Part shown: positions 2,484-18,866 of the stretch, in pieces | Layout of the letters: every line of letters starts with the position of its first letter | Numbering within the stretch: position 1 is the first letter of the stretch | Assembly (NCBI GenBank): GCA_030066195.1 | Contig: JASJCB010000204.1 | Coordinates: 1 to 20,090 of the forward strand | Direction: 5' to 3' | Length of the DNA stretch: 20,090 bases | Source of the DNA: Acidobacteriota bacterium | GTDB lineage: Bacteria; Acidobacteriota; Holophagae; Acanthopleuribacterales; Acanthopleuribacteraceae | Program-made: the position numbers and the translations under genes | Notes under the pieces: model-generated | The model's database searches: none | What the model was told of the DNA's origin: nothing | What the model saw: only the letters and a program-made list of their open reading frames with translations

Positions 2484-2594
2484 TACGGCCGATGCAGGGT
2501 TTCAACCTTCCTCGATTTTCCTCACCTCAGGTCGGGCAAAATCGTATAGAATCGGGCTTACAGCCTTGACGGAACCCTAAGGAGACCCGCCTTG

Positions 2595-3290
2595 ATGGAG
2601 TTATGGAATCTTGCCACCAGTCCGGTAATGTTGCCGCTAACCCTCATCTTCGGGCTTAGTATCGGCTACTGGATCGTGGTCATTGTCACCGGCATCGATT
2701 TCGATCTGGGTCTGGATGCCGACGTTGACGTGGATGTAGACGTGGATGTGGATGTAGACGTCGACGTGGACGCCGATGTTGACGCGGATGTGGATGCCCA
2801 TGCCGACCTCCACGGCGCCGCACATCAATTGGGTCCCCTGCTGTCCATGTTGGTCTTCTTCAACGTGGGAACCATACCGCTTACCTTTATCCTGGGTTTG
2901 AACGCCCTGTTCAGTTGGACCCTCGGCATGTTCGTGTTCAAAACTTTTCCGTTCAGCGGCCTGCTCGCCTATGCCCTGTACATTCCCATCTTCCTGGTGA
3001 GCGCCTTTGCCACCAAGCTGGTAACCCAACCGTTCGCCGGCATGGTGCGCCGCCACAAACAGGAAACGGCCGAGCGCCACACCGTCCTGGCCAAATTCGG
3101 CTATATGGAATCCGACAACGACGGTCAACGGCTTTCCCAATGCAAAGTACCTACCGACGGCGCCCCCTTTCTGGTCAATGTGAAGGCCCGTCCCGGCCAG
3201 GTCTTGAAACGGGGCGCCCGCGTGCTGATTATCGAGGAGGCCGAGGAAGGCAACTTCTACTACGTGGAAAATATGGATGAGAATAACTAG
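2595..3290 (+). CDS. NfeD/YqiJ-family membrane protein: N-terminal TM helices and C-terminal OB-fold-like NfeD domain. A (DV)n acidic repeat lies in the loop after TM1-2.
   Basis: AGGAG RBS about 12 nt upstream of ATG 2595 (track start 2592 is TTG). Several hydrophobic helices. C-terminal VPTDGAPFLVNVKARPGQVLKRGARVLIIEEAEEGNFYYVE resembles the NfeD beta-barrel. Sits immediately 5' of a flotillin gene, as in the yqiJ-yqiK and yuaF-floT arrangements. Confidence 0.7.
   Translation: MELWNLATSPVMLPLTLIFGLSIGYWIVVIVTGIDFDLGLDADVDVDVDVDVDVDVDVDADVDADVDAHADLHGAAHQLGPLLSMLVFFNVGTIPLTFILGLNALFSWTLGMFVFKTFPFSGLLAYALYIPIFLVSAFATKLVTQPFAGMVRRHKQETAERHTVLAKFGYMESDNDGQRLSQCKVPTDGAPFLVNVKARPGQVLKRGARVLIIEEAEEGNFYYVENMDENN
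2715..2807 (+). repeat. In-frame hexanucleotide tandem repeat (GAY GTN)x~15 encoding DADVDVDVDVDVDVDVDVDADVDADVDAHAD inside the NfeD-like gene.
   Basis: Seen directly in the sequence: alternating GAC/GAT and GTG/GTA/GTT/GTC codons with a few GCC substitutions. Confidence 0.9.
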
Positions 3291-3388
3291 GACTATTGAG
3301 AATCAAAACGTCCGTGACAAAAATCTGGTCGGTGTTTCCTATCGGGGAACCCGCATCACCGTGAAATACATTTTGGAGTGAACGACAT

Positions 3389-5770
3389 ATGGAATATTTA
3401 ATTATCGCCCTGGCGGGCCTTGTTGTCACCGTAATCGGGATTCTGTTCGTCTGGAAGAGTTTCTACCGCAAGGCCGTTCAAGGCCAGGCGCTGGTCAAAA
3501 CCGGTTTTGGGAAAACCAATGTCAGTTTCGACGCGGCCTGGGTCGTGCCGCTGTTGCACCGTTGCGAGGTAATGGACATTTCCGTCAAACGCGTCGTGTT
3601 GGAACGTAGCGGCAATGACGGCCTGGTCTGTCAGGACAATATGCGGGCCGATATCAAGGTCGCCTTCTTCGTCCGCGTCAACAACAATGTGGACGATGTC
3701 AAAAACGTTGCCACCACCATCGGGGTCACCCGTGCCTCCGATCGCCAGGCCATCAATGAGCTGTTCGATCCCAAATTCTCGGAAGCACTGAAGACAGCCG
3801 GCAAGAAGTTCGACTTCGTGGACCTCTACCAGGAACGCCGCCGCTTCAAAGAAGAGATTCTGGACGTTATCGGCACCGACCTCAACGGTTACATCTTGGA
3901 CGACTGCGCCATCGATTACCTGGAACAAACCGATATCAATAACCTCAGCGCCGACAACATTCTGGACGCAGAGGGCATCAAAAAGATCACCGAATTGACG
4001 GCCAACCAGAAGGTTCTGGCCAACCAGATCGATCGCGATCGCGAAAAGACCATCAAGCAGCAGGACGTTGAAGCGCAGGAAGCCATCCTCGAGTTGGAGC
4101 GCCAATTGGCCGAGACTCAGGAAAAGCAAAAGCGAGAGGTACTGTCCATCAAGGCCCGTGAGGCTGCCGAGGCCGCAAAGGTGCAACAGGAAGAACGCCT
4201 GAAAGCCGAAACCGCCCGCCTCCAGACCGAGGAAGAAGTTCAGGTAGCCACCCAGAACAAGGAACGCCAGGTCATCGTGGCCCAAAAGAACAAGGAACGC
4301 GCCGAGAAGATCGAGATCGAACGCATCGAGAAGGATCGTCAACTGGAAGTCATCGAGCGCGAACGCGTGGTAGAACTGACCACCATCGAAAAGGAACGGT
4401 CGGTAGAGGTAGAACGCAAGAACATCCAAGACGTGATCCGCGACCGCGTTGTGGTTGAGAAAGCGGTGGTCGAGGAAGAAGAGAAGATCAAGGACACCCG
4501 CGCCTTCGCAGAGGCGGAACGCGTCAAGCAGGTGACCGTCACCCAAGCCGCCACGGAAGCCGAAGAGGCCAAGGTCAAAGAAGTCAAGAAAGCGGAAGCC
4601 GAGAAGGAAGCGGCCGCGTTGCAGGCGGAGCAAAAGGTGATCGAAGCCGAGGCCGCGCGCAAATCGTCGGACAAAAACGCCGAGGCGCGTAAGGTTCTGG
4701 CCGAAGCCAAGGCCGCGGAAGACGCTACCATCGGCCTGGCCGAGGCCCAGGTGCAGGAAGCCAAGGCCAAGGCCGCCGAACTGGAAGGTCAGGCCCATGC
4801 CAACGTTCTGGAGAAGAAAGCCCTGGCGGAAGCAAAAGGCATCCAAGCCAAAGCCGATGCCATGGAGAAACAAGGTACGGCCGAGGCCAGTGTCATGGAG
4901 AAGAAAGCCGTCGCCGAGGCCAACGGCATCCAGGTCAAGGCCGATGCCCTGGAAAAGCAGGGCACCGTACGGGCAACCGTCCAGTTGAAGGAAATGGAAG
5001 CCAAGGCGAAGGGCACCGAAGCGCAGGGCACCGCCGAAGCCGTCGCCATGGAGAAACTGGCGTCCGCGGAAGCTTCAGGCCTGGCCATGAAGGTAGACGC
5101 CAAGGAAAAGGAAGGCTTGATGGAAGCCGCCGTCATCCAGAAGAAAGCCGAGGCCGAGGCTCGCGGCGAGGAAGCCCGCGCCGAAGCACTGGAACGCCTG
5201 GGCAGCGCCGAAGCCGCCAACCTGCTGAAGAAGTTCCAAGCCGACGCGCAGGGCATCCGCGAGAAGGCGGAAGCCATGAAGCTGTTCGATCCCGACGGCC
5301 GCAAGCACGAGGAATTCAAGCTGGAACTGGAAACGAAGCTGAAGGAAGTGCTGGCCTCGCTGGATACACAGAAGGACATCGCCAAAGCCCAGGCCGAAGT
5401 CATCGCCAAGGGCCTGGAAGCGGCCGATATCGAGATCGTGGGCGGCGAGTCCATGTTCTTCGACCGAATCGCCAACAGTATCGCCCAGGGCCGCTCGGTC
5501 GACCGTCTGCTGGAGAACAGCAAAGCCCTGACCGATGTCAAGGAGACCTTCTTCAACGGCGACCCCGAGTACTTCAAGTCGCAGCTCAAGGGTTTTGTGG
5601 ACCAGTTCGGCATGAGCAGCGCGGATCTCAAGAACCTGACGATCTCCGCGTTGATCGGCCAAATGATGAACAAAACCGACGACAGCAACACCCGCGGCCT
5701 GCTGGGCAAGCTCCTGGCCATGGCCGAAAGCGCCGGTCTGGGCAACCAATCCGCCGGCTTATTGGGTTGA
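3389..5770 (+). CDS. Flotillin-like SPFH/band-7 protein (YqiK/FloT family), 793 aa: N-terminal TM anchor, SPFH domain, and a very long E/A/K-rich coiled-coil tail with internal repeats.
   Basis: N-terminal hydrophobic helix (LIIALAGLVVTVIGILFVW). SPFH-like core (QALVKTGFG...VDISVKRVVLE...DNMRADIKVAFFVRV). EA-rich repetitive coiled coil typical of flotillins. Adjacent to an NfeD gene. GGAG RBS present. Confidence 0.9.
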   Translation: MEYLIIALAGLVVTVIGILFVWKSFYRKAVQGQALVKTGFGKTNVSFDAAWVVPLLHRCEVMDISVKRVVLERSGNDGLVCQDNMRADIKVAFFVRVNNNVDDVKNVATTIGVTRASDRQAINELFDPKFSEALKTAGKKFDFVDLYQERRRFKEEILDVIGTDLNGYILDDCAIDYLEQTDINNLSADNILDAEGIKKITELTANQKVLANQIDRDREKTIKQQDVEAQEAILELERQLAETQEKQKREVLSIKAREAAEAAKVQQEERLKAETARLQTEEEVQVATQNKERQVIVAQKNKERAEKIEIERIEKDRQLEVIERERVVELTTIEKERSVEVERKNIQDVIRDRVVVEKAVVEEEEKIKDTRAFAEAERVKQVTVTQAATEAEEAKVKEVKKAEAEKEAAALQAEQKVIEAEAARKSSDKNAEARKVLAEAKAAEDATIGLAEAQVQEAKAKAAELEGQAHANVLEKKALAEAKGIQAKADAMEKQGTAEASVMEKKAVAEANGIQVKADALEKQGTVRATVQLKEMEAKAKGTEAQGTAEAVAMEKLASAEASGLAMKVDAKEKEGLMEAAVIQKKAEAEARGEEARAEALERLGSAEAANLLKKFQADAQGIREKAEAMKLFDPDGRKHEEFKLELETKLKEVLASLDTQKDIAKAQAEVIAKGLEAADIEIVGGESMFFDRIANSIAQGRSVDRLLENSKALTDVKETFFNGDPEYFKSQLKGFVDQFGMSSADLKNLTISALIGQMMNKTDDSNTRGLLGKLLAMAESAGLGNQSAGLLG

Positions 5771-5778
5771 TCCACAAC

Positions 5779-5800
5779 GGGGGAGCCCGCGCGCTCCCCC
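5779..5800 (+). promoter_or_regulatory. GC-rich stem-loop (GGGGGAGC-ccgcgc-GCTCCCCC) between the flotillin stop and the giant ATPase start. No U-tract. Possible intra-operon attenuator or mRNA stabiliser.
   Basis: Perfect 8-bp inverted repeat read from the sequence, 9 nt after the flotillin TGA and 30 nt before the next start codon. Confidence 0.4.
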
Positions 5801-5830
5801 ACTTCATGCAAGACCGAGTATATCGATAGG

Positions 5831-8800
5831 GTGGATATGAGCGACGCTGTAGAAGAGCAAAAACAGGACGTCCAACTAGAGGGCGGCACCTACGAGATCA
5901 TCCGCAATCGACTCAACGGCCAGGCCGATGAATTGAGGGCGCGACTGAAGAAACTGAACGAAACCCGCAAGGCCACGTTCGGATCGATTGAAACCAAACT
6001 GGTGGGTAGCGAACGCATTACCACCGACAATAACTGTACGCCCAGGGACATGGTGCCCATCGGCGACAAATTTATCTTCGGCTACAATGTCCACGTGGGC
6101 TTACGCGCCGAGTTGGACCTGGACGATGTCTTCGCCGTTTACACCATCCATGACGACGGCTTCCGCCTGGAGAGCTTGGACCTGATCCGTGATCCCAAGT
6201 TCGAAAAAGATTTCCATAACTTATATAAGTATTATAAAAAAACTGTCTTTTCTACCTTTAAGGTCATCGGCCCCCACCTCTTCATGAAGTTTCGGGTGGG
6301 CGAGGCCATCAATGATTTCAAAACCTTCAAGTGGTTGATCGAGGGTGCCGGCCTTACGTATATGGACAACCGCTCCGACCACGAGTTCAAATACCCGCCC
6401 CAGCACGAATTCGAGTGGCTGCGCACTCGTCGCGACTGGTTCCGCATGGGCGCTCACCCGCATATCAGCATCGATGACCGCGTCTTTGTGGAGACCATCG
6501 GCGGCGACCTGACCATCAAGGTGGAAGACAATACCGACGTGGGCCACGGCATTCTGGACGAGCCCGTGGAAAACCCGGACCAGACCCTGGACGACGCTGA
6601 GATTTACTATGCCTCCATCGGTCCGCTGATTCTGCTGAAGATCCTGCCTTACCAGGAGAAGGAATGGCGCTACTTCGTCTTCAACGAGAAGTTGCAGGAG
6701 GCGCATCGCGTCGACGCCATTGCCGACAGTTGCGTGCTGCTGCCCGACGATCACGGCATCATCTTCCCCAAGGGTTACTACCTGCTGACGGGCGAGTTGA
6801 AAGAATTCGACAACCAGCTTTCCGACATGATCTTCGAAAGCCGCGTGCCCTCACCCAACGGCGAAGATTTCCTATACGTCTTCTACAACAGGCTGGACGG
6901 CGTCTATATCCTGCTCAGTTACAACTTGATCGAACAGAAGGTAGCCACGCCCATCATCTGCAGCGGCTTCTCGCTGTTTGAAGACGGCAAGCTGATCTAT
7001 TTCCGCGCCGACGCTCAACCCGCCAAGCACCACGCTCTGCAAATCTGGCAGACCGGCTACGTGGGACTCAACTACAAACAGGAAGACATGGCCGAAACCG
7101 CGCTCACCAAGATCGGCAACAAGGACGTGGTGCGCTGCATGGCGGAATGTCACGAGGTGCTGGTGCTCATCGGCAAGGAGGACGTCTACGCCAACCTGTA
7201 TGTGGACATCGTTCGCAAGGTCACGTCTATCGTTGACGCCTACTTCTGGCTGTCGAACGAGGGCGCCGAGAAACCACGCGAGGTGTTGGAACAGATTCGC
7301 ACCACCGCCAACGGGGCCATCGAGGAATTCGAGAAGGTCAACCGCATCAAAAAGGCCACCGCCGCCGAATTGGCGCGCGTCTCGGAAAAGGCCGATGCGC
7401 TGACTGCCGAGGTCAGCCGCACCCACTTCGAGGGCATTGGCGAATTCGTGCGCCTGCTGGCTGAACTGCGCACCCTGCGCGGCGAGATCATCGGCTGTCG
7501 TGAGCGCCGCTATATCGACCTGGAGCGCGTGGACGAATTGGAACAGCGCGCGGGCGAACAGGCCGATACGCTGTCGCAACGCTGCGTTGAGTTCCTATTG
7601 CAACCCGAAGCCTTGGAACCCTATGCCGATCGGGTAGCCGCACAGGAAACCGCGGTCGGCGACCTGGCTCGCGTCACCGCCGCCAAAGAGGTGGAAGACG
7701 CCCTGGACCAGGCCGGCAGCGACCTGGAACTGCTGATTGAAATCGTCAGCAATCTCAAGATCGACGACGCTACCGAGACCACCCGCATCATCGACAGTAT
7801 CTCGGCCATCTACGCCGACCTGAACCGGGTCAAAAGCGCGGTTAAAAACAAGAAAACCGAACTGGCCCGCGTGGAAGGCGTCGCCGAATTCAACGCCCAG
7901 ATGAAACTGGTCTCCCAAGGCCTCATCAACTACCTGGACGTCTGCGACACGCCGGATAAATGCGAGACCTACCTGACCAAGCTCACCGTGCAACTGGAAG
8001 AACTGGAAGGCAAGTTCGCCGAGTTCGACGAGTTCATCGAGCAGTTGACCGACAAACGCGAGGAAGTCTACAACGCCTTCGAGGCCAAGCGCCTGCAACT
8101 GGTAGAGGCCCGCAACAAAAAGGCAACCTCGCTGTTCGGTTCCGCCGAACGTATTCTCAAGGGTGTGCGCGGCCGCATCGCCAAATTCACCGACGTCAAC
8201 GAAATCAACGGTTACTTTGCCGGCGACCTGATGGTGGACAAGGTCCGCAACATCATGGCAAGCCTGGTGGACCTTGGTGAAACGGTGAAAGCCGACGACC
8301 TGCAAAGCCGTCTCAAGACCATCCGCGAAGAAGCCGTGCGCCAGTTGAAAGACAAGTTGGACCTGTACGAGGACGGCGGCAACCTGATCAAATTGGGCAA
8401 TCACAAATTCAGCGTCAACGCCCAGACCCTGGCTTTGACCACGGTCCTGCGCGAAGACAAACAGTACTTCCACCTCACGGGCACCAACTTCTTCGAGGAA
8501 ATCACGGACGCCGAACTCCTGGCCACCGAACCCGTCTGGGAGATGGAGGTCTCGAGTGAGAACCGCCGGGTTTACCGGGGCGAGTTCCTAGCCTACCAGA
8601 TGCTCCGCTCCCTGGAGACCGGTGAGGAACACACGGCTGCCGAAGCCCTGGCCATGGACGACGACGCCCTATTAACCTATGTCCAGCGATTCATGGGACC
8701 GCGTTTCAACGAGGGTTACGCCAAGGGCGTGCACGACCGTGACGCGGCATCGCTGCTGCGCGTGCTGCTGGAACTGCACGAAAAGCTGGGCCTGCTGGCC

Positions 8801-11248
8801 TATCCGCCGCGAACCCGCGCCTGCGCCATGGTCTTTTGGGAGCGCTTCTGTTCCGCCGGGCCTAAAGCCAACTTCCTGGCTACCTGCAAGGGCTTGCGCG
8901 CCCTGACCGAACTGTTCCCCGAGAACAAACAATCCGTTGCCTTTATCGCCGGCCTGGAGCAGTTGATCGGGCGCTTCTTGGAAACCTCCGGCCTGTTCGA
9001 GAGTCACCGCGCTCACGATGCCGCCGTCTACCTGTTCCGCGAGTTGATCCACGGCAACGGCTTCGCGATCTCCCAAGAGGCCGGCGTCATCTACCGGGAA
9101 CTGGTCGCCTACCTGAAACACCGCAACGCGCAAGACAGCTTCCGCGCCAACTTGAAGACCCTGGAAAAGGACCCGATCAAGGCATTCAACCTGTGCCGGG
9201 AGTGGGTGGCGGCCTATATCGACGCGGAAGTGAACGGCGAGGACGATTTTGAAGACGAAGTGGCGGCGCTGCTGTTCACTGAAAGCTACGATCCCGAACG
9301 GGTGGCCGAGGTTACCGTCAACCGCGACCTGACCGGGTTCAAGGGCAACCACCCGCTGCTTGAAGGCGGCAACTATCACCTGAACTACAACGCCTTCATG
9401 GAAAAGCTGGCCCAATTCCAACGGGATGTCAGCCCCAAGTACACGTGCTATCTCAGCTTGAAGAAAAAGCTCAGCGAAGAATTTGCCGTGGATTTGCGCC
9501 TGGAGGAATTCAAGCCGCGCGTGCTGACCAGTTTCGTGCGCAACAAGTTGTTGGACCAGGTCTACCTGCCGATTATCGGCGACAACCTGGCCAAGCAAAT
9601 CGGCGCCGCCGGCGCGGGCACCCGCACGGATCGCATGGGCATGCTCCTGCTCATATCACCCCCCGGCTACGGTAAAACCACCCTGATGGAGTACATCGCC
9701 AATCGCCTGGGCCTGATCTTCATGAAGATCAACGGGCCCGCCATCGGTCACGAGGCAACCAGTATCGACCCCGCCGCCGCCCCTCATTCCGCGGCTCGCG
9801 AGGAATTGAACAAGCTGAACCTGTCCTTGGAAATGGGCGATAACGTGATGATCTATCTGGACGACATCCAGCACTGTAACCCGGAACTCCTGCAAAAGTT
9901 CATCTCCCTGTGCGACGCCCAAAGGAAGATAGAGGGCGTCTACAAGGGCCGCACCCGCACCTATGACCTGCGCGGCAAGAAGGTCTGCGTGGTCATGGCG
10001 GGCAACCCCTACACCGAATCGGGCGACAAGTTCCAGATCCCCGACATGCTGGCCAACCGCGCCGACACCTACAACCTGGGCGATATCATCGGCGACCAGG
10101 CAAGCTCCTTCGAACTGAGCTATGTGGAAAACGCGCTGACCAGCAACCCGGTCCTCAATAAACTGGCGGGCCGCAGCCAGAAAGACGTCTATAGCCTGAT
10201 CAAAATCACGGAAACGGGAACCCGCGAGGGCATCGAACTCGAGGGCAATTACACCAATGAAGAAGTCAGCGAGTTCAGCAACGTCCTGGCCAAACTCTTC
10301 CGCGTGCGCGATGTCATCCTGCGCGTCAACCTGGAGTACATCCGCTCCGCGGCCATGGAAGACGCCTATCGCACCGAACCGGCCTTCAAGCTACAGGGCA
10401 GCTACCGCAATATGAATAAAATCGCCGAGAAGGTGCTGCCCATTATGAACGACGCGGAACTGGAAACCCTGATTGCCTCCCACTACGAAAACGAGGCCCA
10501 AACCCTGACCAGCGGCGCGGAAGCCAACCTGCTCAAGTTCCGCGAACTTTGCGGGACCATGACCGGGGAAGAACAAAACCGCTGGACCCAAATCAAGCGT
10601 ACCTTCCACAAAAAGCAATCCATGCACGGCGTCGATTCGGAAGACAAGGTGGGCCAGGTGATCTTGCAACTGGCCAATTTCGGCGAAGGTCTGGAGGCCA
10701 TCAAAGACACCCTGGCCAAGGTCGCGGAAAACCGCGAACCCATCGACGAAATCCAGGAAGAGGGCCCGTTGGAAACCCACACCACGCTGTCCCCGGACAC
10801 CCTCACAAACCTGGGCGGCCTGCTCCAACCCATGATGGAAACCATGGGCAAATCGTTGGCGCAAGCCACGGCCGGCCAGGAGGCAAACCGGGCGCTGGAA
10901 CAGGCAAGGGCGCAAATCCAGGCCCTGGAAGCGGCAAAAAGAGAAGCGGAAGCCAAAAAGCCGGAACCCGCACCCGCCCAACCTGCCGCACCTAAAAAAC
11001 CAACCCCGGAAATCGACCCGCGCTTCTTGATGAAGGTCATCCGCCAGCAGTTCAACGTCATGCACCACTGGCTGAAACCCCTCTACGACACGGCGGTCAA
11101 GAACGACAAAACGGTAGACGACCTGAACGCGGCGGTCAATAACCTCATGACCACCCACGGCAGCTTGCTGAACTACCTCCAGCAATTCCAGGGAACCAGG
11201 AAACCAGCTCCGAAACAACCGCCGAGAAGAAAGAAGACCGAAACTTAA
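5831..11248 (+). CDS. Giant 1805-aa protein. Residues 1 to ~1250 are unassigned, with coiled-coil segments around residues ~480-560 and ~700-780. Residues ~1260-1520 form an AAA+ ATPase core of the AAA_5/MoxR/McrB type. The tail has a Pro/Ala/Lys-rich linker and a small terminal domain. GTG at 5831 or ATG at 5837.
   Basis: Walker A LLLISPPGYGKTT (nt 9665..9682 = GYGKTT). Walker B VMIYLDDIQH (DD at 9860..9865). Sensor-1-like VVMAGNPYT. Arg motif PDMLANRADTYNL. Uninterrupted 5.4-kb ORF with host-like codon usage. AGGGTGG RBS. Only 60 bp from the flotillin gene. Confidence 0.85.
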   Translation: MDMSDAVEEQKQDVQLEGGTYEIIRNRLNGQADELRARLKKLNETRKATFGSIETKLVGSERITTDNNCTPRDMVPIGDKFIFGYNVHVGLRAELDLDDVFAVYTIHDDGFRLESLDLIRDPKFEKDFHNLYKYYKKTVFSTFKVIGPHLFMKFRVGEAINDFKTFKWLIEGAGLTYMDNRSDHEFKYPPQHEFEWLRTRRDWFRMGAHPHISIDDRVFVETIGGDLTIKVEDNTDVGHGILDEPVENPDQTLDDAEIYYASIGPLILLKILPYQEKEWRYFVFNEKLQEAHRVDAIADSCVLLPDDHGIIFPKGYYLLTGELKEFDNQLSDMIFESRVPSPNGEDFLYVFYNRLDGVYILLSYNLIEQKVATPIICSGFSLFEDGKLIYFRADAQPAKHHALQIWQTGYVGLNYKQEDMAETALTKIGNKDVVRCMAECHEVLVLIGKEDVYANLYVDIVRKVTSIVDAYFWLSNEGAEKPREVLEQIRTTANGAIEEFEKVNRIKKATAAELARVSEKADALTAEVSRTHFEGIGEFVRLLAELRTLRGEIIGCRERRYIDLERVDELEQRAGEQADTLSQRCVEFLLQPEALEPYADRVAAQETAVGDLARVTAAKEVEDALDQAGSDLELLIEIVSNLKIDDATETTRIIDSISAIYADLNRVKSAVKNKKTELARVEGVAEFNAQMKLVSQGLINYLDVCDTPDKCETYLTKLTVQLEELEGKFAEFDEFIEQLTDKREEVYNAFEAKRLQLVEARNKKATSLFGSAERILKGVRGRIAKFTDVNEINGYFAGDLMVDKVRNIMASLVDLGETVKADDLQSRLKTIREEAVRQLKDKLDLYEDGGNLIKLGNHKFSVNAQTLALTTVLREDKQYFHLTGTNFFEEITDAELLATEPVWEMEVSSENRRVYRGEFLAYQMLRSLETGEEHTAAEALAMDDDALLTYVQRFMGPRFNEGYAKGVHDRDAASLLRVLLELHEKLGLLAYPPRTRACAMVFWERFCSAGPKANFLATCKGLRALTELFPENKQSVAFIAGLEQLIGRFLETSGLFESHRAHDAAVYLFRELIHGNGFAISQEAGVIYRELVAYLKHRNAQDSFRANLKTLEKDPIKAFNLCREWVAAYIDAEVNGEDDFEDEVAALLFTESYDPERVAEVTVNRDLTGFKGNHPLLEGGNYHLNYNAFMEKLAQFQRDVSPKYTCYLSLKKKLSEEFAVDLRLEEFKPRVLTSFVRNKLLDQVYLPIIGDNLAKQIGAAGAGTRTDRMGMLLLISPPGYGKTTLMEYIANRLGLIFMKINGPAIGHEATSIDPAAAPHSAAREELNKLNLSLEMGDNVMIYLDDIQHCNPELLQKFISLCDAQRKIEGVYKGRTRTYDLRGKKVCVVMAGNPYTESGDKFQIPDMLANRADTYNLGDIIGDQASSFELSYVENALTSNPVLNKLAGRSQKDVYSLIKITETGTREGIELEGNYTNEEVSEFSNVLAKLFRVRDVILRVNLEYIRSAAMEDAYRTEPAFKLQGSYRNMNKIAEKVLPIMNDAELETLIASHYENEAQTLTSGAEANLLKFRELCGTMTGEEQNRWTQIKRTFHKKQSMHGVDSEDKVGQVILQLANFGEGLEAIKDTLAKVAENREPIDEIQEEGPLETHTTLSPDTLTNLGGLLQPMMETMGKSLAQATAGQEANRALEQARAQIQALEAAKREAEAKKPEPAPAQPAAPKKPTPEIDPRFLMKVIRQQFNVMHHWLKPLYDTAVKNDKTVDDLNAAVNNLMTTHGSLLNYLQQFQGTRKPAPKQPPRRKKTET

Positions 11249-11387: not shown

Positions 11388-12368
11388 ATGTTTCGACTTT
11401 TCGCGGCCGTCGTCCTGGCGGCCTGCATTGCCCCCGTTACCTTTGCGGCAACCCATTACGTGGCCCCCGGTCAGAATATCCAGTCGGTTCTGGACAGCTC
11501 CGGCGCCTATGACACCGTCATTCTTCAATCGGGGGATCATTACATCTCCCAAACCCTGCGCCTGCCCGCGCGCACGACTTTGAAAGGCGGCGGACCCAAC
11601 CGTAATTCGGTCAGCCTGATCGCCATGTCTTCCCTGGTCGGACCGGTGATCAAGGCTGTCAACGACTCAACCGGCAGTGACCGCAGCCACAAGATTCTGG
11701 ACATGCAAATCATCAGCAACGGAACCGCTCAATCGAGTACCGAGGCAACCGGTATCATGCTGTGGAACGTGCAGTACAGCGAAGTCAACAATGTGGTCAT
11801 CAGGAACACCTGGCGCATGAGCATTTCCATGCAGAACTCCTACCACATCTACGTCTTCAACAGCGAGTTCCGCGATATGGGTTTCGGTCCCACGGCGCTG
11901 GGCAGCTTCTGGATCAACAATTGCGATAGGGTTTGGATCGGGGACAATGTCATCTACGGCATGAACAACGGTACCAAAGGCGACGGTGGTATCGATTGCT
12001 ACGGCAGCACAATGGTGAAGATCTACCGCAATGACCTCTACGACACCGGTGAAAGCTCCATCTACGCCGCGAATGCGGGTTGTCCGGGCATCGAAGTCTG
12101 GGGCAATTACATCACCGGCAGCAATGAGTGGGGCATCGACCTGGTCAACAGTCCGGGCGCCTTCGTCTCCTCCAACGAAATCCGCAACAGCTTCCACGGG
12201 GCTATCGTCCTCTGGGACTCTCCCAACGCGGAAGTAACCTACAACGTGATGTTCAACAACAACACCGGTGGTCACGTATCCTGCAACGGTCTGAACCGCC
12301 GAGGCAACACCAGCGGTCTGACCTTCACAAACAACAGCGGTAACGGCACCCTGCTCTGCAATCGCTAA
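11388..12368 (+). CDS. Secreted right-handed parallel beta-helix (pectate-lyase-fold, PbH1-repeat) protein.
   Basis: AGGAG RBS. Signal peptide MFRLFAAVVLAACIAPVTFAA. Repetitive beta-helix rungs (NNVVIRNT, IGDNVIYG, GNYITGSNEWGIDLVNS, NSFHGAIVLWDS) rich in N/G/T/S. Confidence 0.65.
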   Translation: MFRLFAAVVLAACIAPVTFAATHYVAPGQNIQSVLDSSGAYDTVILQSGDHYISQTLRLPARTTLKGGGPNRNSVSLIAMSSLVGPVIKAVNDSTGSDRSHKILDMQIISNGTAQSSTEATGIMLWNVQYSEVNNVVIRNTWRMSISMQNSYHIYVFNSEFRDMGFGPTALGSFWINNCDRVWIGDNVIYGMNNGTKGDGGIDCYGSTMVKIYRNDLYDTGESSIYAANAGCPGIEVWGNYITGSNEWGIDLVNSPGAFVSSNEIRNSFHGAIVLWDSPNAEVTYNVMFNNNTGGHVSCNGLNRRGNTSGLTFTNNSGNGTLLCNR

Positions 12369-12382
12369 ACCAATAGAATCGA

Positions 12383-12433
12383 GCCGCGGAGTGCGCGGGG
12401 AAGATGAACATCGCTTCCTACGTACTCCGCGGC
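12383..12433 (+). terminator. 10-bp inverted repeat GCCGCGGAGT...ACTCCGCGGC enclosing a 31-nt loop with an inner 5-bp hairpin, 15 nt after the beta-helix gene stop. No clear U-tract, so possibly Rho-dependent or another structured RNA.
   Basis: Read directly from the sequence. Confidence 0.25.
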
Positions 12434-12518
12434 CGAAACAACTTGCCCCGGGCTTGGAGGCAGATTGAGTTGCGCACGAATCGATCCGAAGCATGGGTAA
12501 TGACGCCGTGATAAGATA

Positions 12519-13487
12519 ATGAAAGTTCAAGCCCGGAGGCTTTCATTGATCATGCCCCATACTTTGCTGAAGACGCTTTTGTCGATATTGTTAGGTGTAG
12601 CCTTGCTCCCGGGTTACGCCTCGGAAGACGCCTACTACGATCAAATCGCCCGTGCCCACCACTACTTCTACAACGCCGAAGACTACGTCCGAGCCGCCGA
12701 GGCCTACGACAAGGCATTTGCTCTTCAAAAAGGCCGCAACCAGGACTATCATCGCGCCGCCGTTTGCCGCGCCAGGACGGGAAATATCGCCGGAGCGCTT
12801 TCCTTTTTGGCATCGGCTGTCGAGGCCGGCTGGAGGGACTGGGAAGAAACTGAAGATGAAGAGGCTTTTGCCGTCTTGCACAAAGAACCGGAATGGGTGC
12901 GCCTATCGGAAATCCTGAAGGAAAGACACCGGACTCACCAGGCCGGCTTGAACCGGGCATTGATCGAAAAACTGGCCGCCATCCGCGAGGATGATCAAAA
13001 ACTGCGCCTGCAACTGCGAGACCTGACCAGGAAATACGGACACCAGTCGGAAGAGGTACGCGCGGCTTGGGCAAAGATCGGGGAGAAGGATAAGAAAAAC
13101 CTGGCCTTGATTGAAGCCATCCTGGCCGAACACGGCTATCCCGGTTGGAGCATGGTAGGCAACCAACGCATGACCGCGTTTCTGGTTATTCAACACGCCG
13201 CGCCGGAAATCCGCGTTAAATACCTGCCCATGCTCAAAAAAGCCGCCGCCGAGGGTGAAATGCCCAACAGATCCCTGGCTTTGGTCATCGACCGCATGCA
13301 CATGGAAAAAGGTGAAAAACAAATCTACGGTTCCCAAGTGACTCGTGATAAAGACGGCAACACTGTCGTTCACCCCATTGAAGATGAGGCGGGCGTCCAT
13401 CGTCGCCGTGCCGAGATGGATTTGTTGCCCCTGGACAAGTACCTGAAGTACCTCAAGATAGACTACCCGCCGCTGATCCGGGAATAA
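12519..13487 (+). CDS. Secreted hypothetical protein: signal peptide, N-terminal TPR-like helical region, conserved-looking C-terminal domain of unknown function.
   Basis: Signal peptide LLKTLLSILLGVALLPGYAS. Helical repeats (YDQIARAHHYFYNAEDYVRAAEAYDKAFAL...). Coding-like codon bias across the full ORF. Confidence 0.55.
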   Translation: MKVQARRLSLIMPHTLLKTLLSILLGVALLPGYASEDAYYDQIARAHHYFYNAEDYVRAAEAYDKAFALQKGRNQDYHRAAVCRARTGNIAGALSFLASAVEAGWRDWEETEDEEAFAVLHKEPEWVRLSEILKERHRTHQAGLNRALIEKLAAIREDDQKLRLQLRDLTRKYGHQSEEVRAAWAKIGEKDKKNLALIEAILAEHGYPGWSMVGNQRMTAFLVIQHAAPEIRVKYLPMLKKAAAEGEMPNRSLALVIDRMHMEKGEKQIYGSQVTRDKDGNTVVHPIEDEAGVHRRRAEMDLLPLDKYLKYLKIDYPPLIRE

Positions 13488-13553
13488 ATCGCGGCAGCTG
13501 TCATCGAGCATTGGAAACTCCGGCACATCCATATGCCGAAGTCCCCATAGCTC

Positions 13554-14348
13554 CTATTCGGGGCAGGGCTCGTTAGTGGACCGGATTAACTCTGAAATAT
13601 CGGTTTGGCCGGGCCGGACCGGCATTTTCTGCCGGAAGGTTTGGGTTGAAGTCCAGTTGCAGTAGATTCGGTACACGTCCACATGGTTGACGAAGGGGCC
13701 GCTGCCCAGTAACAGGTAATCGTCAGCCAGGGTAAGGCCCCTGCGACTGGAGCTAAAATCGGAGCTATTGCCGAAATGCCTGATAAAGACGGGTCGATCC
13801 GGGTTGCTGATGTCCAACAAATCGAGCGCCCGGTTTTGCGCAAGAGCGACCAGTAGATCCCCCGACAGAACAAGGTTTCTGTATAACCCGGTTCCTGCAA
13901 AAAGATACCGTTCCTCCGGTTGGGCGGGGTCGGTAATGTCGATGACCCGGATACCGGTGGTGGCGGAGGCGATATAGAGCCGATCGGTAATCGGGTCCAA
14001 GGCAAGGTGTTGTCCGTCCCACCCGGCAATGGTCGTCACGTGTTGCGGATCGGCCGGATCGTTGACGTCGAAGATATGCAGGCCGTTCTCACCCACCACA
14101 TAGGCATAACCCTCGGCGACTTCGATATCCAGTCCATCCCCGGCATTCATGAGTACCTGAGCCGCGAAGTCCGGTGCGCCCAGCACATCGATGGTGCTGA
14201 ATTGGTGTTCGTAGAGCATGTAGGCATAACCGCCGTCCACCGTCAATCGAGTCGGGCCGTCCAAAACCATGGGGACATCTCCCACCGGTGTGATCATGCT
14301 CGGGTCGCTGATATCGTAGGCCCGGAAACCGTGGGAAAAGTCGGCCAT
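13554..14348 (-). CDS. LVIVD-repeat beta-propeller protein, apparently truncated at its 5' end by the adjacent hairpin-repeat array. No signal peptide, and the first Met lies inside a repeat. Possible pseudogene.
   Basis: LVIVD-type repeats (GYAYVVGENGLHIFDVNDPADP; LYIASATTGIRVIDITDPAQP; LLVALAQNRALDLLDISNPDRP). The reading frame continues 5 codons (KINGI) into the first repeat unit, then hits an in-frame TAA at the unit boundary. Confidence 0.55.
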   Translation of the reverse strand: MADFSHGFRAYDISDPSMITPVGDVPMVLDGPTRLTVDGGYAYMLYEHQFSTIDVLGAPDFAAQVLMNAGDGLDIEVAEGYAYVVGENGLHIFDVNDPADPQHVTTIAGWDGQHLALDPITDRLYIASATTGIRVIDITDPAQPEERYLFAGTGLYRNLVLSGDLLVALAQNRALDLLDISNPDRPVFIRHFGNSSDFSSSRRGLTLADDYLLLGSGPFVNHVDVYRIYCNWTSTQTFRQKMPVRPGQTDISELIRSTNEPCPE

Positions 14349-14354
14349 GTAGGC

Positions 14355-14727
14355 GATACCGTTGATTTTACCCCCTATGTAATCTACATAGGGTTAGATA
14401 CCGTTGATTTTACCCCCTATGTAATCTACATAGGGTTAGATACCGTTGATTTTGGGGAGCATTAGATTACATAGGGTCTGAAACCGCTGATTTTGCCCCC
14501 TATGTAACGTGCATAGGGTTGGAAACCGTTGATTCGGCCCCCTATGGAGTTTACATAGAGGGTAAATCATCGTGACAAGACCCTCATGGGAAAAATGTCG
14601 CCCAAAATCAACGGTATCTAACCCTATGGAGATTGCATAGGGGTCAACATCAACGGTATCTAACCCTATGCACGCTACATAGGGGTCAAAATCAACGGTA
14701 TCTAACCCTATGCAGGTTAATGGGTTG
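14355..14727. repeat. Array of eight ~42-bp hairpin repeat units. Five direct units lie at 14355-14564, then a 39-bp centre, then three inverted units at 14604-14727. Consensus: GATACCGTTGATTTT-ACC-CCCTATG-[7 nt variable loop]-CATAGGG-TTA.
   Basis: Seen directly. Units 1 and 2 are identical (loop TAATCTA). Unit 3 carries the inverted loop TAGATTA with a decayed left stem arm. Unit 4 loop is TAACGTG and unit 5 GAGTTTA. Reverse-strand units carry loops related to those on the left arm. Overall the array is an imperfect ~370-bp palindrome. Confidence 0.9.
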
Positions 14728-14822
14728 TCATATCAGCACTTCACAACTATATTTTTTCAATTCGGCTTGTGGCGACCGTGTCGGGTCGGGTAGAATAAGC
14801 CTGACCACCCCAGCGGAGTTCA

Positions 14823-15824
14823 TTGTTGCGGATTCTTTTCGAATCGAACCACGTATATCCGGCCGGCGGCTCTACCGGTACCGGTTTATCTCCCAATTCC
14901 CTGGCCACCGGCGGTTCCAGCATGGTTCACGACCTCCTGGCCCGTGCCCTGGCCGAGTTGGGTCATCAGGTCTTTTATCTCTTGCCCAACAGTCGCGATC
15001 CCGACCTGCCCGATGGGGTTACGCATCTCACTCATCCCATCGTCGATGTGGATGTCTTCCATCATTACAACAGTCAGAAGCTGTTCGAATCCAAAGCCCT
15101 TGAATCAATTCAAGCAGCCGGCATACCCTGGGTGGTTACCTGTCACAACGCGCCCGGGCATTGGGGCGGCGCTCGTGGTGATGTCCGCGACAATTGGATC
15201 TTCGTTTCCAAGACCCTGGCCGAAGCCCATGGCAGCGGGCGCTACGTTTGGAACGGCGTGGACCCGGAGGCGCTTCAGTTCAGTAGGGTCAAGCAGGACT
15301 ACCTTCTGTTCATCAGCAATATGCGGAACCTGGATCAGGTTTATGCCAAAGGTCTCGATCTTGCCTTGGAAGTTTCGGCCCGGTCGGGTTGCCCGCTACG
15401 GGTTATCGGTTCCTGCCGCGACCGCGAAACTATCGACGCCGTGACCGACATGTGCCGTCGCGCCGATGCTCACTTCCTGGGGGATGTTCGCGGTATCGAG
15501 AAAGCTCGACTCCTGGCCTCGGCCAAAGCACTTTTGTTTACCTCGCGATTACATGAGGCGTTCGGGCTTCCCATCATCGAGGCCGCGGTAAGCGGGACCC
15601 CGGTTATCAGCTTGAACATCGGCGCCGCCGAAGAACTGGTTTCCGTCAGCATGGGTTTCGTTTGTGCCGATGTTCAGGAGATGGTCTGTCGCGTCGACAG
15701 GGTATCGGCTGTCGACCCTGAGACCTGTCGGGCTCACGCACTCGAACGTTTTCACTACCACCGGACGGCGCGTGAATACCTGACGCAGTACCAATTGGAG
15801 ATGGAGGGCGTGTCATGTCCCTGA
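14823..15824 (+). CDS. Glycosyltransferase family 4 (GT-B, retaining type), TTG start.
   Basis: N-terminal ILFESNHVYPAGG and C-terminal EAFGLPIIEAAVSGTPVIS (E-x7-E) motifs typical of GT4. GGAG RBS 5 nt upstream. Confidence 0.75.
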   Translation: MLRILFESNHVYPAGGSTGTGLSPNSLATGGSSMVHDLLARALAELGHQVFYLLPNSRDPDLPDGVTHLTHPIVDVDVFHHYNSQKLFESKALESIQAAGIPWVVTCHNAPGHWGGARGDVRDNWIFVSKTLAEAHGSGRYVWNGVDPEALQFSRVKQDYLLFISNMRNLDQVYAKGLDLALEVSARSGCPLRVIGSCRDRETIDAVTDMCRRADAHFLGDVRGIEKARLLASAKALLFTSRLHEAFGLPIIEAAVSGTPVISLNIGAAEELVSVSMGFVCADVQEMVCRVDRVSAVDPETCRAHALERFHYHRTAREYLTQYQLEMEGVSCP

Positions 15825-16618
15825 CCCACCTGCAACGAGACTATTTCCACGATACCGGGTACCTGGCCCCGTTGCCGCTGTTGTCTCGGGAAGAAGCGGA
15901 GGTCTACCGTCAGCGCGCCGACCGAACGCGGCAACACTTGCACGGCGAGGACCTGGTGCAGCCCCATCTGTTCTTCGATTGGGCTCGCGAACTGGCCTTA
16001 TTACCACGAGTTCTGGACGCGGTGGAAAGCCTGATCGGTGCCGATATCCTGGTCCACAGCACCTCGCTCTTCTGGAAAGCGCCGGGGGACGGCGTTTTTG
16101 TCTCCTGGCATCAGGACGGTTATTATTGGCGGTTGTCGGAGCCCGAGGTCGTCTCGGCTTGGATCGCCCTGTCCGTCAGCAACCGGGAAGCGGGCTGCCT
16201 TCAGGTGATTCCCGGCAGTCAGCGGGACGGCGTTGTTCTTCATACCGAACGCCGCGCCCCCGGGAACATGTTGCGAAGCGGGTTGACCGTCGATCTCGAT
16301 GTGGACCCTGAACGCGCTGTCGCCGTGGAACTGACGTCCGGGCAGTTTTCCCTTCACCACGTCGATCTGGTTCACGGCTCCCGACCCAATACCTCCGATC
16401 AGGCTCGGGTTGGTTTTGCGGTGCGCTATATTCCTGCCGGGGTTCGCCAGGATTTCCCGCACCATGAAGTTATTCAAGCCAGGGGCGTGGATGACGCGGG
16501 GAATTATGCACATTGGGACGCCGAATTCAACGATGAAGAAGAGGCCCTGCGCGCCCATGCCCGCTTTAAAAAACGCCTGCGCACTTTTCGATTGGGCAAC
16601 AATAAGGAGAAAGCATGA
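15815..16618 (+). CDS. Phytanoyl-CoA dioxygenase (PhyH)-family Fe(II)/2-oxoglutarate-dependent oxygenase.
   Basis: WHQDGYYW...VSAWIALS...GCLQVIPGSQ...HHVDLVHGSRPN motifs (HxD...H facial triad) match the PhyH family. 10-nt overlap with the upstream GT4 gene. Confidence 0.75.
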   Translation: MSLTHLQRDYFHDTGYLAPLPLLSREEAEVYRQRADRTRQHLHGEDLVQPHLFFDWARELALLPRVLDAVESLIGADILVHSTSLFWKAPGDGVFVSWHQDGYYWRLSEPEVVSAWIALSVSNREAGCLQVIPGSQRDGVVLHTERRAPGNMLRSGLTVDLDVDPERAVAVELTSGQFSLHHVDLVHGSRPNTSDQARVGFAVRYIPAGVRQDFPHHEVIQARGVDDAGNYAHWDAEFNDEEEALRAHARFKKRLRTFRLGNNKEKA

Positions 16619-17472
16619 ATCCCATGCTCAAGAAGCTGGGGTTCGGCCCCAAGGATCGGGTTTGCATCATCCATGCCGATGACCTGGGGATGAGCGGCCG
16701 TGAACTGCCGGCTTTTGAGGATTTGCTGGACAGCGGCCTGCCGCTTTCCGGTTCGGTGATGGCGCCCTGCTCCGGCTTTGAGGAGGTCGCCGCTTGGGCC
16801 GTCGCACATGAAGAGGCCGACTTGGGCGTCCATCTCACCTTGACCAGCGAATGGGACGATTGGCGCTGGAAACCGTTGACCGGCGGAGCAAGTCTGCTGG
16901 ATTCGGAAGCTTGTTTAGCCAAAACCGTCGCCCTGCTGAACCGACATGCGGAGCCCGAGGACGTTCGCCGTGAGCTGTCGGCCCAAATCGAACGTGTCCG
17001 AAATGCCGGTATGAAACCCACGCATCTGGATTGCCATATGTACACCAGCCTGGCCGCGCCCTTTTTCGATATCTATTTAGACCTGGCCCTGGAGTGGAAC
17101 CTGCCGTCTTTCATCCCCCGGGAAGATCCCCGCTGGACCGGCGATCCCGGGTATAGAAGGGAACGGGTGAACGTTTGGGAACAGGCGGGTCGGCCGATTT
17201 TCGACACCCTGATGACCATGAAGAACCGGCCCGGCGACCGCTTGGAACAAGCCGTATCCAATATAACCAACCTGCCTGTCGGTCTGTCCTATGTTCTGCT
17301 GCATCCCGTCAAACCCGGCGGCGAACCGCTGACCCCGGACTGGCATTACCGCGAACAGGATTATGAAGCCTTCATCAGCCCTCGCTTTCGGGATGTTTTA
17401 AGGCAATCCGATGTACAATGTATCAGCTACAAAACACTGTTGCAGGAGCTCCCTAATGCCCGCCCTGAATGA
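16615..17472 (+). CDS. ChbG/HpnK/YdjC-family carbohydrate deacetylase.
   Basis: N-terminal RVCIIHADDLGMS matches the YdjC-family metal-binding motif (xIxxADDFG). ATGA start/stop overlap with the PhyH gene. Confidence 0.65.
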   Translation: MNPMLKKLGFGPKDRVCIIHADDLGMSGRELPAFEDLLDSGLPLSGSVMAPCSGFEEVAAWAVAHEEADLGVHLTLTSEWDDWRWKPLTGGASLLDSEACLAKTVALLNRHAEPEDVRRELSAQIERVRNAGMKPTHLDCHMYTSLAAPFFDIYLDLALEWNLPSFIPREDPRWTGDPGYRRERVNVWEQAGRPIFDTLMTMKNRPGDRLEQAVSNITNLPVGLSYVLLHPVKPGGEPLTPDWHYREQDYEAFISPRFRDVLRQSDVQCISYKTLLQELPNARPE

Positions 17473-18673
17473 GATCTTTCCCCATATTCTGTGCATCAAC
17501 CTGGATCGCAGACCCGAACGCTGGTCCGCTACTCAAGAGGAATTCGACCGCTTGCAAATCACCGGCGTCACACGAATTGCGGCCGTGGATGCTCGTCAAT
17601 TGCAGATCCCCGACCGCTGGAGCGATCCGCCTGGAGCCTACGGCTGTCTGCAAAGTCACCTGAAGGCGGTGCGTCACGCCCGCGATCAGGGTTGGCCGCA
17701 CGTGCTTATCTTGGAAGACGATGTGGTCTTTGCGAACGACCTGCACGAGCGACTCGCCGAGATTGCCGGCGAGTTGCCGGAAAAATGGGCCATGCTGTCC
17801 CTGGGCGGCATCCATCGCGAGGCGCCGGGAGAATACTCGACCGGGTTGTGCCGCATGCGTCAAACCCTTTCCACTCACGCCTACGCCTTGAGCGCCTGGT
17901 TCTATGATGCCTTCATCCAGGCGCATCAGGAGGAAAACGATCCGGTGGACGTGACCAATACCTGCCTGCAACGGGACCATCCCTGTTTCTGCGCCATGCC
18001 CCATCTCGCCTGGCAGCGGGACGGCTGGTCGGATGTTCAGCTGGAGCGCGAGAGCCACTGGTCGATCCGGGAATCGCTGGTGCTGGTGGGTGATTCGATG
18101 GACCTGTTGCTGCGCCACACCACCGTGGTGATCGCCTACAACGGCTCCGGCGGACCCGCGAACCTGAGCCATGTCATGCGCTTCTACGGCGAGAACTATC
18201 CCGACATGGAGATTCTGGTTATCGGCAACCGACCCGCGCCTTGGACCAAGGAACCGCCCGTTCCCTCGCGATATTTCCAAGTTGCCGAGGATGCGGAACG
18301 CGACGAAATGCTGCGCTTCGGCTACAGCTTTGCGCGCAAACCCAACCAGATCTTCATCTTCACCGATGCCGACGTGGTGCCCACCCGCGAACGCTACATC
18401 CGGGCGGCGGTAAGGATGTGCGAAAAGGTAGACGGGGCATCGGGATTTGCCCAATTGATTACCTTGAACAAAGACGACAGCATGCGCGTGCGCCGAGGTC
18501 AACAGAAAGCGGTGGATCTTGAGTCATACGAACCTATGTCAGATCTTCCGGCGGACCGGGCCTTATGCATTGTCACTCGCGACGGATTGGATCGCCTGGG
18601 CGGCTGGTTCCCGGAAGACCTGGGGGAGTTGGACCTCTACCCGTCACCCAACCGGGCGTTGCGGTTAAGTTGA
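17456..18673 (+). CDS. Two-domain glycosyltransferase: N-terminal GT25 (Lic2B/LgtB-like LPS glycosyltransferase) fused to a C-terminal GT-A/GT2-like domain with a DxD motif. Start probably the ATG at 17456 (track ORF begins at 17411).
   Basis: ILCINLDRRPERW...AAVDARQL matches the GT25 N-terminus. The C-terminal half has VVIAYNG...FIFTDADVVP (DAD). 17-nt overlap with the upstream gene. Confidence 0.65.
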   Translation: MPALNEIFPHILCINLDRRPERWSATQEEFDRLQITGVTRIAAVDARQLQIPDRWSDPPGAYGCLQSHLKAVRHARDQGWPHVLILEDDVVFANDLHERLAEIAGELPEKWAMLSLGGIHREAPGEYSTGLCRMRQTLSTHAYALSAWFYDAFIQAHQEENDPVDVTNTCLQRDHPCFCAMPHLAWQRDGWSDVQLERESHWSIRESLVLVGDSMDLLLRHTTVVIAYNGSGGPANLSHVMRFYGENYPDMEILVIGNRPAPWTKEPPVPSRYFQVAEDAERDEMLRFGYSFARKPNQIFIFTDADVVPTRERYIRAAVRMCEKVDGASGFAQLITLNKDDSMRVRRGQQKAVDLESYEPMSDLPADRALCIVTRDGLDRLGGWFPEDLGELDLYPSPNRALRLS

Positions 18674-18700
18674 TTAAAGCAAATAGGGGGTTGCGCGGAC

Positions 18701-18719
18701 GCGGCCCTGGGAGGGCCGC
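18701..18719. terminator. Hairpin GCGGCCCT-GGG-AGGGCCGC, 28 nt after the GT operon stop. Weak U-tract on either strand, so possibly a bidirectional terminator.
   Basis: 8-bp perfect inverted repeat read from the sequence, positioned between convergent genes. Confidence 0.35.
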
Positions 18720-18866
18720 CTGCAAAATGTTGGTTTAATACCCAAAACCATCTCTGATTGTCATAACATACCTCCTTCTTTGCTGCGCTTGGAGCGCATC
18801 TCTACCATAAATATAGATCCTCCAAGCCGTCTTCGCAAGGGACATTTTGGCACTTCCCTTCTTCAC

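Follow-up and report, generated by a model that had tools for sequence, protein, structure and literature searches.

What a giant cytoplasmic ATPase filed in public records as a 'DNA repair ATPase' does in the cell is the question raised by one contig of an Acidobacteriota bacterium of the family Acanthopleuribacteraceae (assembly GCA_030066195.1, contig JASJCB010000204.1). The stretch analysed here, positions 1 to 20,090 of the forward strand (20,090 nucleotides; hereafter the window), holds a 5.4 kb open reading frame (ORF) on the + strand that runs from 5831 (GTG) or 5837 (ATG) to 11248. The public gene model, which carries the DNA repair name, begins at ATG 5837 and encodes 1803 amino acids (aa); the window protein is 100% identical to it over 100% of its length. 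An original prediction, made from the letters of the DNA alone, had described this gene as a giant ATPase with one AAA_5-type module behind a long N-terminal region of unknown fold; on recheck its ORF, every position it gave for motifs and for an AT-rich patch, and its C-terminal linker proved correct. We find that the ATPase gene is the third gene of a three-gene operon at 2592-11248, composed as follows:

2592..3290, + strand: first gene of the cassette, a YqiJ/YuaF (NfeD2)-like membrane protein of 232 aa, with ~3 transmembrane (TM) segments, an acidic loop of the form (DV)n and, at the C-terminus, a soluble domain
3389..5770, + strand: second gene, a giant flotillin (SPFH2-type) of 793 aa, with an N-terminal membrane anchor (1 TM), an SPFH region and a long E/K/A-rich coiled coil
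5837..11248, + strand: third gene, the cytoplasmic ATPase of 1803 aa, with DUF3686, DUF7902 and AAA domains; GTG 5831 is an alternative start

This operon is an 'abbreviated' form of the CesT/Tir-PspA-YqiJ-flotillin-AAA+ envelope-stress operon of Ravi et al. 2024 (PMC11237479). Since the ATPase gene almost always follows a flotillin gene, its product most likely works at the membrane and not in DNA repair. On balance we favour, by no wide margin of confidence, a role as a cytoplasmic AAA+ remodelling motor that serves the flotillin/YqiJ module in envelope maintenance or stress, with a mechanism that we infer below.

The gene neighbourhood was compared across 80 related loci from species-representative genomes, 71 of which had enough upstream sequence to be informative. 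A flotillin gene lay directly upstream of the ATPase gene and on the same strand in 69 of these 71, and the flotillin-linked loci span at least eight phyla, among them Planctomycetota, Bacteroidota, Verrucomicrobiota, Calditrichota, Desulfobacterota and Hydrogenedentota. At least 58 of the related loci also have the YqiJ-like gene, upstream of flotillin. The order in the window (YqiJ-like, flotillin, ATPase, all on one strand) is that of the family, and the same triad is present in Pseudomonas pQBR103, Streptomyces and Deinococcus, at 37-41% identity, and in Hymenobacter. Approached from the other side, two randomly sampled flotillin homologues, looked up independently, each had a DUF3686 ATPase after them. 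Clustering of the neighbouring ORFs in the 80 loci revealed no other conserved gene up- or downstream, including no fourth gene downstream. The original prediction had rightly stated that no VWA partner and no McrC-like gene are nearby: no VWA domain occurs among the window neighbours, the only conserved neighbours being flotillin and YqiJ, and the window has no McrC-like gene. These were, however, the wrong partners to seek, and the flotillin and YqiJ/NfeD2-like genes directly upstream had been missed.

Some relatives carry a longer operon. A CesT/Tir-PspA dyad lies upstream in eight Bacteroidota loci; a Hymenobacter plasmid (L084, 2586-6799) has genes for a Tir chaperone, PspA and a DUF1449 protein upstream of flotillin and ATPase; and in pQBR103 (L081, 1-6830) a cluster resembling E. 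coli yjfIJKLMC, with PspA/IM30, rhomboid, DUF2491, DUF350, DUF1190 and glutathionylspermidine-synthase-like genes, lies directly upstream of YqiJ-SPFH-ATPase. By comparative genomics, Ravi et al. (mSystems 2024; PMC11237479) described the operon and, in a supplementary table, its 'Betapropeller+Coiled-coil+AAA-ATPase', and they reported that abbreviated operons without PspA are the more widely distributed. Their family, which corresponds to Pfam DUF3686 + DUF7902 + AAA and to the NCBI 'DNA repair ATPase', has the same order of propeller, helical region and one AAA+ module as the window protein; the window locus differs in lacking the CesT/Tir-PspA dyad and in having a lineage-specific PAK-rich tail. 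The window ATPase is thus a member of a widespread and already catalogued family, and because family, architecture and operon were described in 2024 the locus adds no new principle. Our literature searches returned nothing under the names DUF3686 or DUF7902 and nothing linking flotillin, YqiK or SPFH with such an ATPase by those names, and a paper on Pseudomonas aeruginosa SPFH proteins is silent on the ATPase.

Pfam and NCBIfam did not recognise the flotillin and YqiJ-like proteins of the window, and their identities were taken from the names of homologues in the source records, a few PF01145 matches, the annotation of an orthologue and the literature. Homologues of the flotillin are named 'flotillin family protein', 'YqiK' or 'PHB domain' in their sources, a few of them with PF01145, and 'Giant SPFH2b' flotillins of 800-1000 aa with NfeD2 partners were described by Hinderhofer et al. 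2009 (PMC2636767); searches of the Protein Data Bank (PDB) with the window flotillin returned just a weak match to the coiled coil of QmcA. The Hymenobacter orthologue of the YqiJ-like protein is annotated as DUF1449 (YqiJ family), the window protein fits the '3TM protein prototyped by YqiJ/YuaF' of Ravi et al. 2024 (PMC11237479), and its profile (A4) matches the OB domain of B. subtilis YuaF (2k14) at the C-terminus, weakly (E 0.13). The ATPase itself has no hydrophobic or TM segment in a hydropathy scan of the protein and the flotillin is anchored at its N-terminus, and therefore both proteins face the cytoplasm.

Within the YqiJ-like gene, the acidic loop is encoded by a (GACGTG)n hexanucleotide tandem repeat of ~12 copies (window 2713-2802; DADVDVDVDVDVDVDVDADVDADVDA). 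Alternating D-x-D is kept family-wide, with the A4 consensus LDxDxLDxDxDxDxD and nearly invariant D42, D44 and D46, and the loop may bind cations or vary in length. Between the flotillin stop and the ATPase start (5779-5800) lies a perfect 8-bp GC-rich hairpin, GGGGGAGC-N6-GCUCCCCC, without a U-tract. In the minimum free energy fold GAUCCAC (5769-5775) also pairs with GUGGAU (5831-5836), immediately 5' of the ATG, a fold that could tune translation of the ATPase relative to flotillin; this intergenic fold was not significantly more stable than shuffled sequences (z -1.8). Between the three genes, promoter and terminator matches were no more frequent than expected by chance.

We next turn to the ATPase itself, the structure of which was predicted with AlphaFold2 (AF2) as two overlapping halves from 52-sequence alignments; the predicted local distance difference test score (pLDDT) was 84.5 for the model of the N-terminal half and 78 for that of the C-terminal half. 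Together with Pfam these models divide the protein, from its N- to its C-terminus, into the following parts:

5930..7246, + strand: DUF3686 domain, aa 32-470 (Pfam PF12458; AF2 pLDDT ~85-94)
7094..8371, + strand: long-helix region, aa 420-845, spectrin-like helical bundles in the model, including DUF7902
7607-7858, + strand: DUF7902 (PF25472), aa 591-674 (Pfam E 3.7e-25, 88.4 bits against a cut-off of 26)
8384..9286, + strand: small beta unit, aa 850-890, and all-alpha domain, aa ~914-1149, both from structure prediction
9629..10072, + strand: AAA+ alpha/beta core, aa ~1265-1412 (Walker A 9665-9682, Walker B 9848-9865)
10073..10636, + strand: lid and helical extension, aa 1413-1600 (AF2 pLDDT ~85-95), with a conserved QGSYRNM motif
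10637..11245, + strand: C-terminal tail, aa 1601-1803, low-confidence helical (AF2 pLDDT 36-65), holding a PAK-rich linker and a terminal helix

The 'unknown fold' of the N-terminal region did not hold up: the region matches DUF3686 and DUF7902, models as a beta-rich domain followed by helical bundles, and its propeller has already been published. The DUF3686 match is strong (E 1.1e-184, 614.5 bits against a cut-off of 25) and covers the profile in full (1-448). In the model an N-terminal helix (aa 16-48) precedes ~27 beta-strands (aa 54-405), which model as a divergent beta-propeller. A Foldseek search of the PDB with this beta part matched seven-bladed propellers with E-values from 5e-6 to 1e-4 (acylaminoacyl and prolyl oligopeptidases, Elp1, clathrin heavy chain and PON1), matches that are generic for propellers and have low TM-scores, at most 0.16 by query length. 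The all-alpha domain at aa ~914-1149 was modelled confidently and no recognisable relative of it was found; further long helices lie between it and the AAA core in the model. As had been claimed, no catalytic motif occurs in the N-terminal ~1250 aa. Within DUF3686, the AT-rich patch at 6205-6260 (20% GC) encodes FHNLYKYYKKTVFSTFK (aa 126-142), where the family consensus in the alignment is LYKYYKxTVFAKF; the patch thus reflects conservation of amino acids.

A scan of the whole protein found a single P-loop and a single hhhhD[DE] motif. Walker A (GYGKTT) lies at nt 9665-9682 (aa 1277-1282), IYLDD with the Walker B residues D1342/D1343 at 9851-9865, AGNPYT with the sensor-1 residue N1390 (10004-10006) at 9998-10015, and MLANRAD with R1408 (10058-10060) at 10046-10066. 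The AAA core was modelled with a pLDDT of 60-85. At this confidence AF2 predicts that the Walker B helix is followed, ahead of the sensor-1 strand, by a pre-sensor-1 beta-hairpin (aa 1364-1377, nt 9926-9967); at the helix-2 position it predicts none. R1524 (10406-10408), within the QGSYRNM motif of the lid, is a candidate sensor-2 arginine.

The family is large. At 90% identity, the relatives scoring E <1e-10 against the ATPase form more than 5600 clusters, the best 120 relatives being 53-70% identical over their full length, and clustering at 50% gave 751 representatives, proteins of ~1550-1930 aa with the DUF3686 domain always N-terminal. A scan of 185,579 species-representative genomes found members in at least 566; they are abundant in Planctomycetota, extend at 37-42% identity to Proteobacteria, Actinobacteria and Deinococcota, and occur in experimentally tractable hosts such as Pseudomonas fluorescens pQBR103, Proteus mirabilis, Vibrio campbellii, Streptomyces and Pontibacter. 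Conservation was measured on an alignment of 65 sequences (64 full-length representatives and the window protein) reaching down to 30% global identity. Each of G1277, G1279, K1280 and T1281 of Walker A, D1342/D1343 of Walker B with the following I-Q-H, the sensor-1 G-N1390-P and R1408 is kept in at least 63 of the 65, QGSYRNM is invariant in two alignments (A2 and A5), and the family motifs SPPGYGKTT, DDIQH, GNPYT, PDMLANR and QGSYRNM are all present in the window protein. The possibility that the motifs are degenerate in orthologues, which would have spoken against the prediction of an active enzyme, is therefore not borne out, and judged by these diverse full-length sequences the single AAA+ module is intact and probably an active motor, as had been proposed.

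The AAA core is the best-conserved part of the protein (column conservation 0.67-0.77), and the ~1250 non-catalytic residues before it retain 40-60% column identity. Past ~aa 1600 conservation collapses to 0.04-0.21. Homologues from Bacteroidota, Proteobacteria and Actinobacteria align just to ~aa 1620-1670; many family members end near there, and some others have C-terminal HEAT or ankyrin repeats instead. Judging from these alignments, the PAK-rich linker (KKPEPAPAQPAAPKKPTP, nt 10955-11008) and the terminal helix are lineage-specific additions, and the original description, which had listed linker and small C-terminal domain as part of the architecture, had not picked out features of the family.

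Assigning the module to a known AAA+ clade is less straightforward, and the AAA_5 label of the original prediction is not established. Pfam matches at aa ~1255-1393 are weak and near-equal (AAA PF00004 27.8 bits, AAA_5 25.1 bits against a cut-off of 22, RuvB_N 25.1 bits), with no AAA_3 match, and no NCBIfam model matched the ATPase above its cut-off. With respect to MoxR/AAA_5 proteins (the PS-II insert clade) the signs are mixed: AAA_5 passes its cut-off without being the best-scoring model, the pre-sensor-1 hairpin is predicted, at the modest confidence of the core, without the helix-2 hairpin, and no VWA gene is adjacent. The classic AAA clade (Cdc48/p97, Vps4, FtsH) does not fit: the PF00004 match is partial (profile positions 1-90 of 131), matches in PDB sequence and profile searches are limited to the P-loop segment, and a pre-sensor-1 hairpin is predicted. 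McrB is set apart by its specific profile and its McrC nuclease partner, neither of which was found in the window. SMC, RecN and Rad50, in which a coiled coil splits an ABC-type head into an N-terminal Walker A and a C-terminal signature motif and Walker B, differ in turn from the window protein, the sole P-loop of which (aa 1277-1282) is followed by Walker B 60 residues later in an AAA+ fold, with no SMC_N or ABC matches in Pfam.

How might such a protein serve a flotillin module? By analogy with other AAA+ proteins, the AAA+ module would presumably form a ring. The N-terminal propeller, at the tip of the long helical-bundle stalk, could then attach this motor to the flotillin scaffold in the cytoplasm, or to PspA or clients held there, and ATP hydrolysis would remodel, disassemble or extract proteins from the membrane assembly, flotillin, PspA or such clients being the putative substrates; the variable C-terminal tail may act as a lineage-specific adaptor. 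Several observations weigh against this account. The linkage to flotillin is not absolute, as two loci have the ATPase gene without an adjacent flotillin gene. In one of them (L028, Cloacimonetes) a CHASE2-adenylate/guanylate cyclase gene lies upstream, and the same metagenome-assembled genome carries a flotillin (P0187, 64% identity) elsewhere, on a contig of 219 kb; in the other (L049, Cytophagales) the upstream sequence holds ORFs of no known family and an AbiEii fragment. The window has no PspA gene and no CesT/Tir-PspA dyad. The position equivalent to pore loop 1 reads GHxVTSLDP, without the aromatic residue that AAA+ unfoldases of the threading type usually have there, and a classical threading or translocation mechanism is therefore uncertain. 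Gene linkage demonstrates functional coupling and does not tell which partner is the substrate, and we found no experimental study of the family in the literature.

The lack of a pore-loop aromatic counts also against a neighbouring explanation, that the ATPase is a quality-control unfoldase at flotillin microdomains, which unfolds damaged membrane-associated proteins held by the scaffold and passes them to a protease (NfeD-type ClpP-like or FtsH) without remodelling flotillin itself. One study reports flotillin microdomains confining and stabilising unfolded proteins (PMC11222466), and the predicted pre-sensor-1 hairpin without a helix-2 hairpin is as in the HCLR clade, with its Clp/Lon neighbours. 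One of the representatives from the 50% clustering (P0249, 1345 aa) moreover has an NfeD1b-type ClpP-like protease domain at aa 74-215, upstream of DUF3686 (aa 498-970) and DUF7902, a possible Rosetta-stone link between NfeD protease and ATPase. This fusion was seen in that single representative and could be a gene-calling artefact, the YqiJ-like partner in the window has no protease domain, and none of the genes conserved around the ATPase in the 80 loci encodes a protease; we consider this explanation unlikely. Nor do we find it probable, and rather less so, that the protein is mainly a structural or mechanical element, its propeller and stalk joining flotillin in a lattice or coat-like layer beneath the membrane while the AAA+ module just regulates assembly. 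The conservation of the ~1250 non-catalytic residues and the abundance of the family in Planctomycetota would suit such a role, but it is the ATPase core that is conserved best, and the propeller matches are generic and low-scoring. A clathrin-like 'protocoatomer' reading was set aside because the helical part forms bundles and not an alpha-solenoid and the TM-scores are low.

Two further explanations start from the nature or the name of the ATPase. A giant ATPase with homologues on megaplasmids, next to an AbiEii fragment in L049 and in some operons next to PspA, historically a 'phage shock' protein, invites comparison with anti-phage or conflict ATPases such as RADAR RdrA or McrB, and the original prediction had suggested RdrA and McrB for comparison. 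There was no RdrA profile match and no RdrB or deaminase nearby; PADLOC returned just LmuB (E 7e-5, helical region) and IetA (E 2e-3, P-loop), neither credible, and there is no effector domain or partner (deaminase, nuclease or McrC). Very high conservation and a neighbourhood that is stable across phyla are also unlike a variable island, and a defence function strikes us as very improbable. The DNA repair role itself, for which the Pfam description of DUF3686 ('ATPase involved in DNA repair') and the NCBI name are the evidence, along with a weak likeness of the helical region to SMC-like LmuB and RuvB_N matches confined to the P-loop, has next to nothing to recommend it. The protein has no DNA-binding domain, nuclease or SMC/ABC-type head, its ATPase is AAA+ and not ABC, its RuvB score is far below the family cut-off (24.9 against 282 bits), its conserved partners are membrane proteins, and our literature search found no paper using the Pfam names. 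The name likely arose, we infer, from a spurious resemblance between the helical region and SMC-like proteins (cf. the LmuB match); it probably misleads, and further annotations should not inherit it.

Returning to the remodelling motor, comparison with known systems suggests a sharper form of it. SPFH cages paired with AAA+ machines are a known theme, exemplified by HflK/C-FtsH. As in that system, the window locus combines an SPFH-family scaffold with an AAA+ machine, and NfeD-type partners occur in related SPFH operons; FtsH, however, is a classic-clade AAA protein that sits in the membrane and includes a protease domain, and HflK/C faces the periplasm, whereas the window ATPase is soluble, lacks a protease domain, has a predicted pre-sensor-1 hairpin and is partnered with a flotillin-type (SPFH2) protein. 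Vps4/ESCRT-III and PspA-associated AAA+ proteins are analogous in that an AAA+ motor is encoded with a membrane-remodelling or membrane-stabilising polymer, some operons of the present family include PspA, and the pairing of ESCRT-III/PspA with Vps4-type AAA+ proteins has been discussed (PMC11237479). It is conceivable, if rather doubtful, that bacterial flotillin cages have in this ATPase a motor of their own, one that uses ATP for assembly, disassembly or extraction and does for flotillin what Vps4 does for ESCRT-III or FtsH for HflK/C. The propeller would then read the C-terminal region of flotillin and the helical stalk would span the dome, and flotillin microdomains in many phyla would be actively remodelled and not passive scaffolds. 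The role of bacterial flotillins is still debated, and a highly conserved ATPase as their near-obligate partner is a concrete starting point for mechanistic work on it.

The remaining genes of the window lie on either side of the cassette:

2-859: AraC/cupin regulator, upstream of the cassette
1282-2238, + strand: putative ORF of 318 aa, upstream of the cassette
11388-12368: right-handed beta-helix protein
12519-13487: TPR + DUF6624 protein
13554-14348, - strand: LVIVD-repeat protein
14823-15824: GT4 glycosyltransferase (weak 'GT4-conflict' match)
15815-16618: PhyH dioxygenase
16615-17472: YdjC

The 318-aa ORF had no match in Pfam, NCBIfam or PADLOC and no counterpart in the 80 related loci, and the genes downstream of the cassette (11388-19523) are not conserved with it. 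Past ~18500 the GC content of the window falls to 44-47%.

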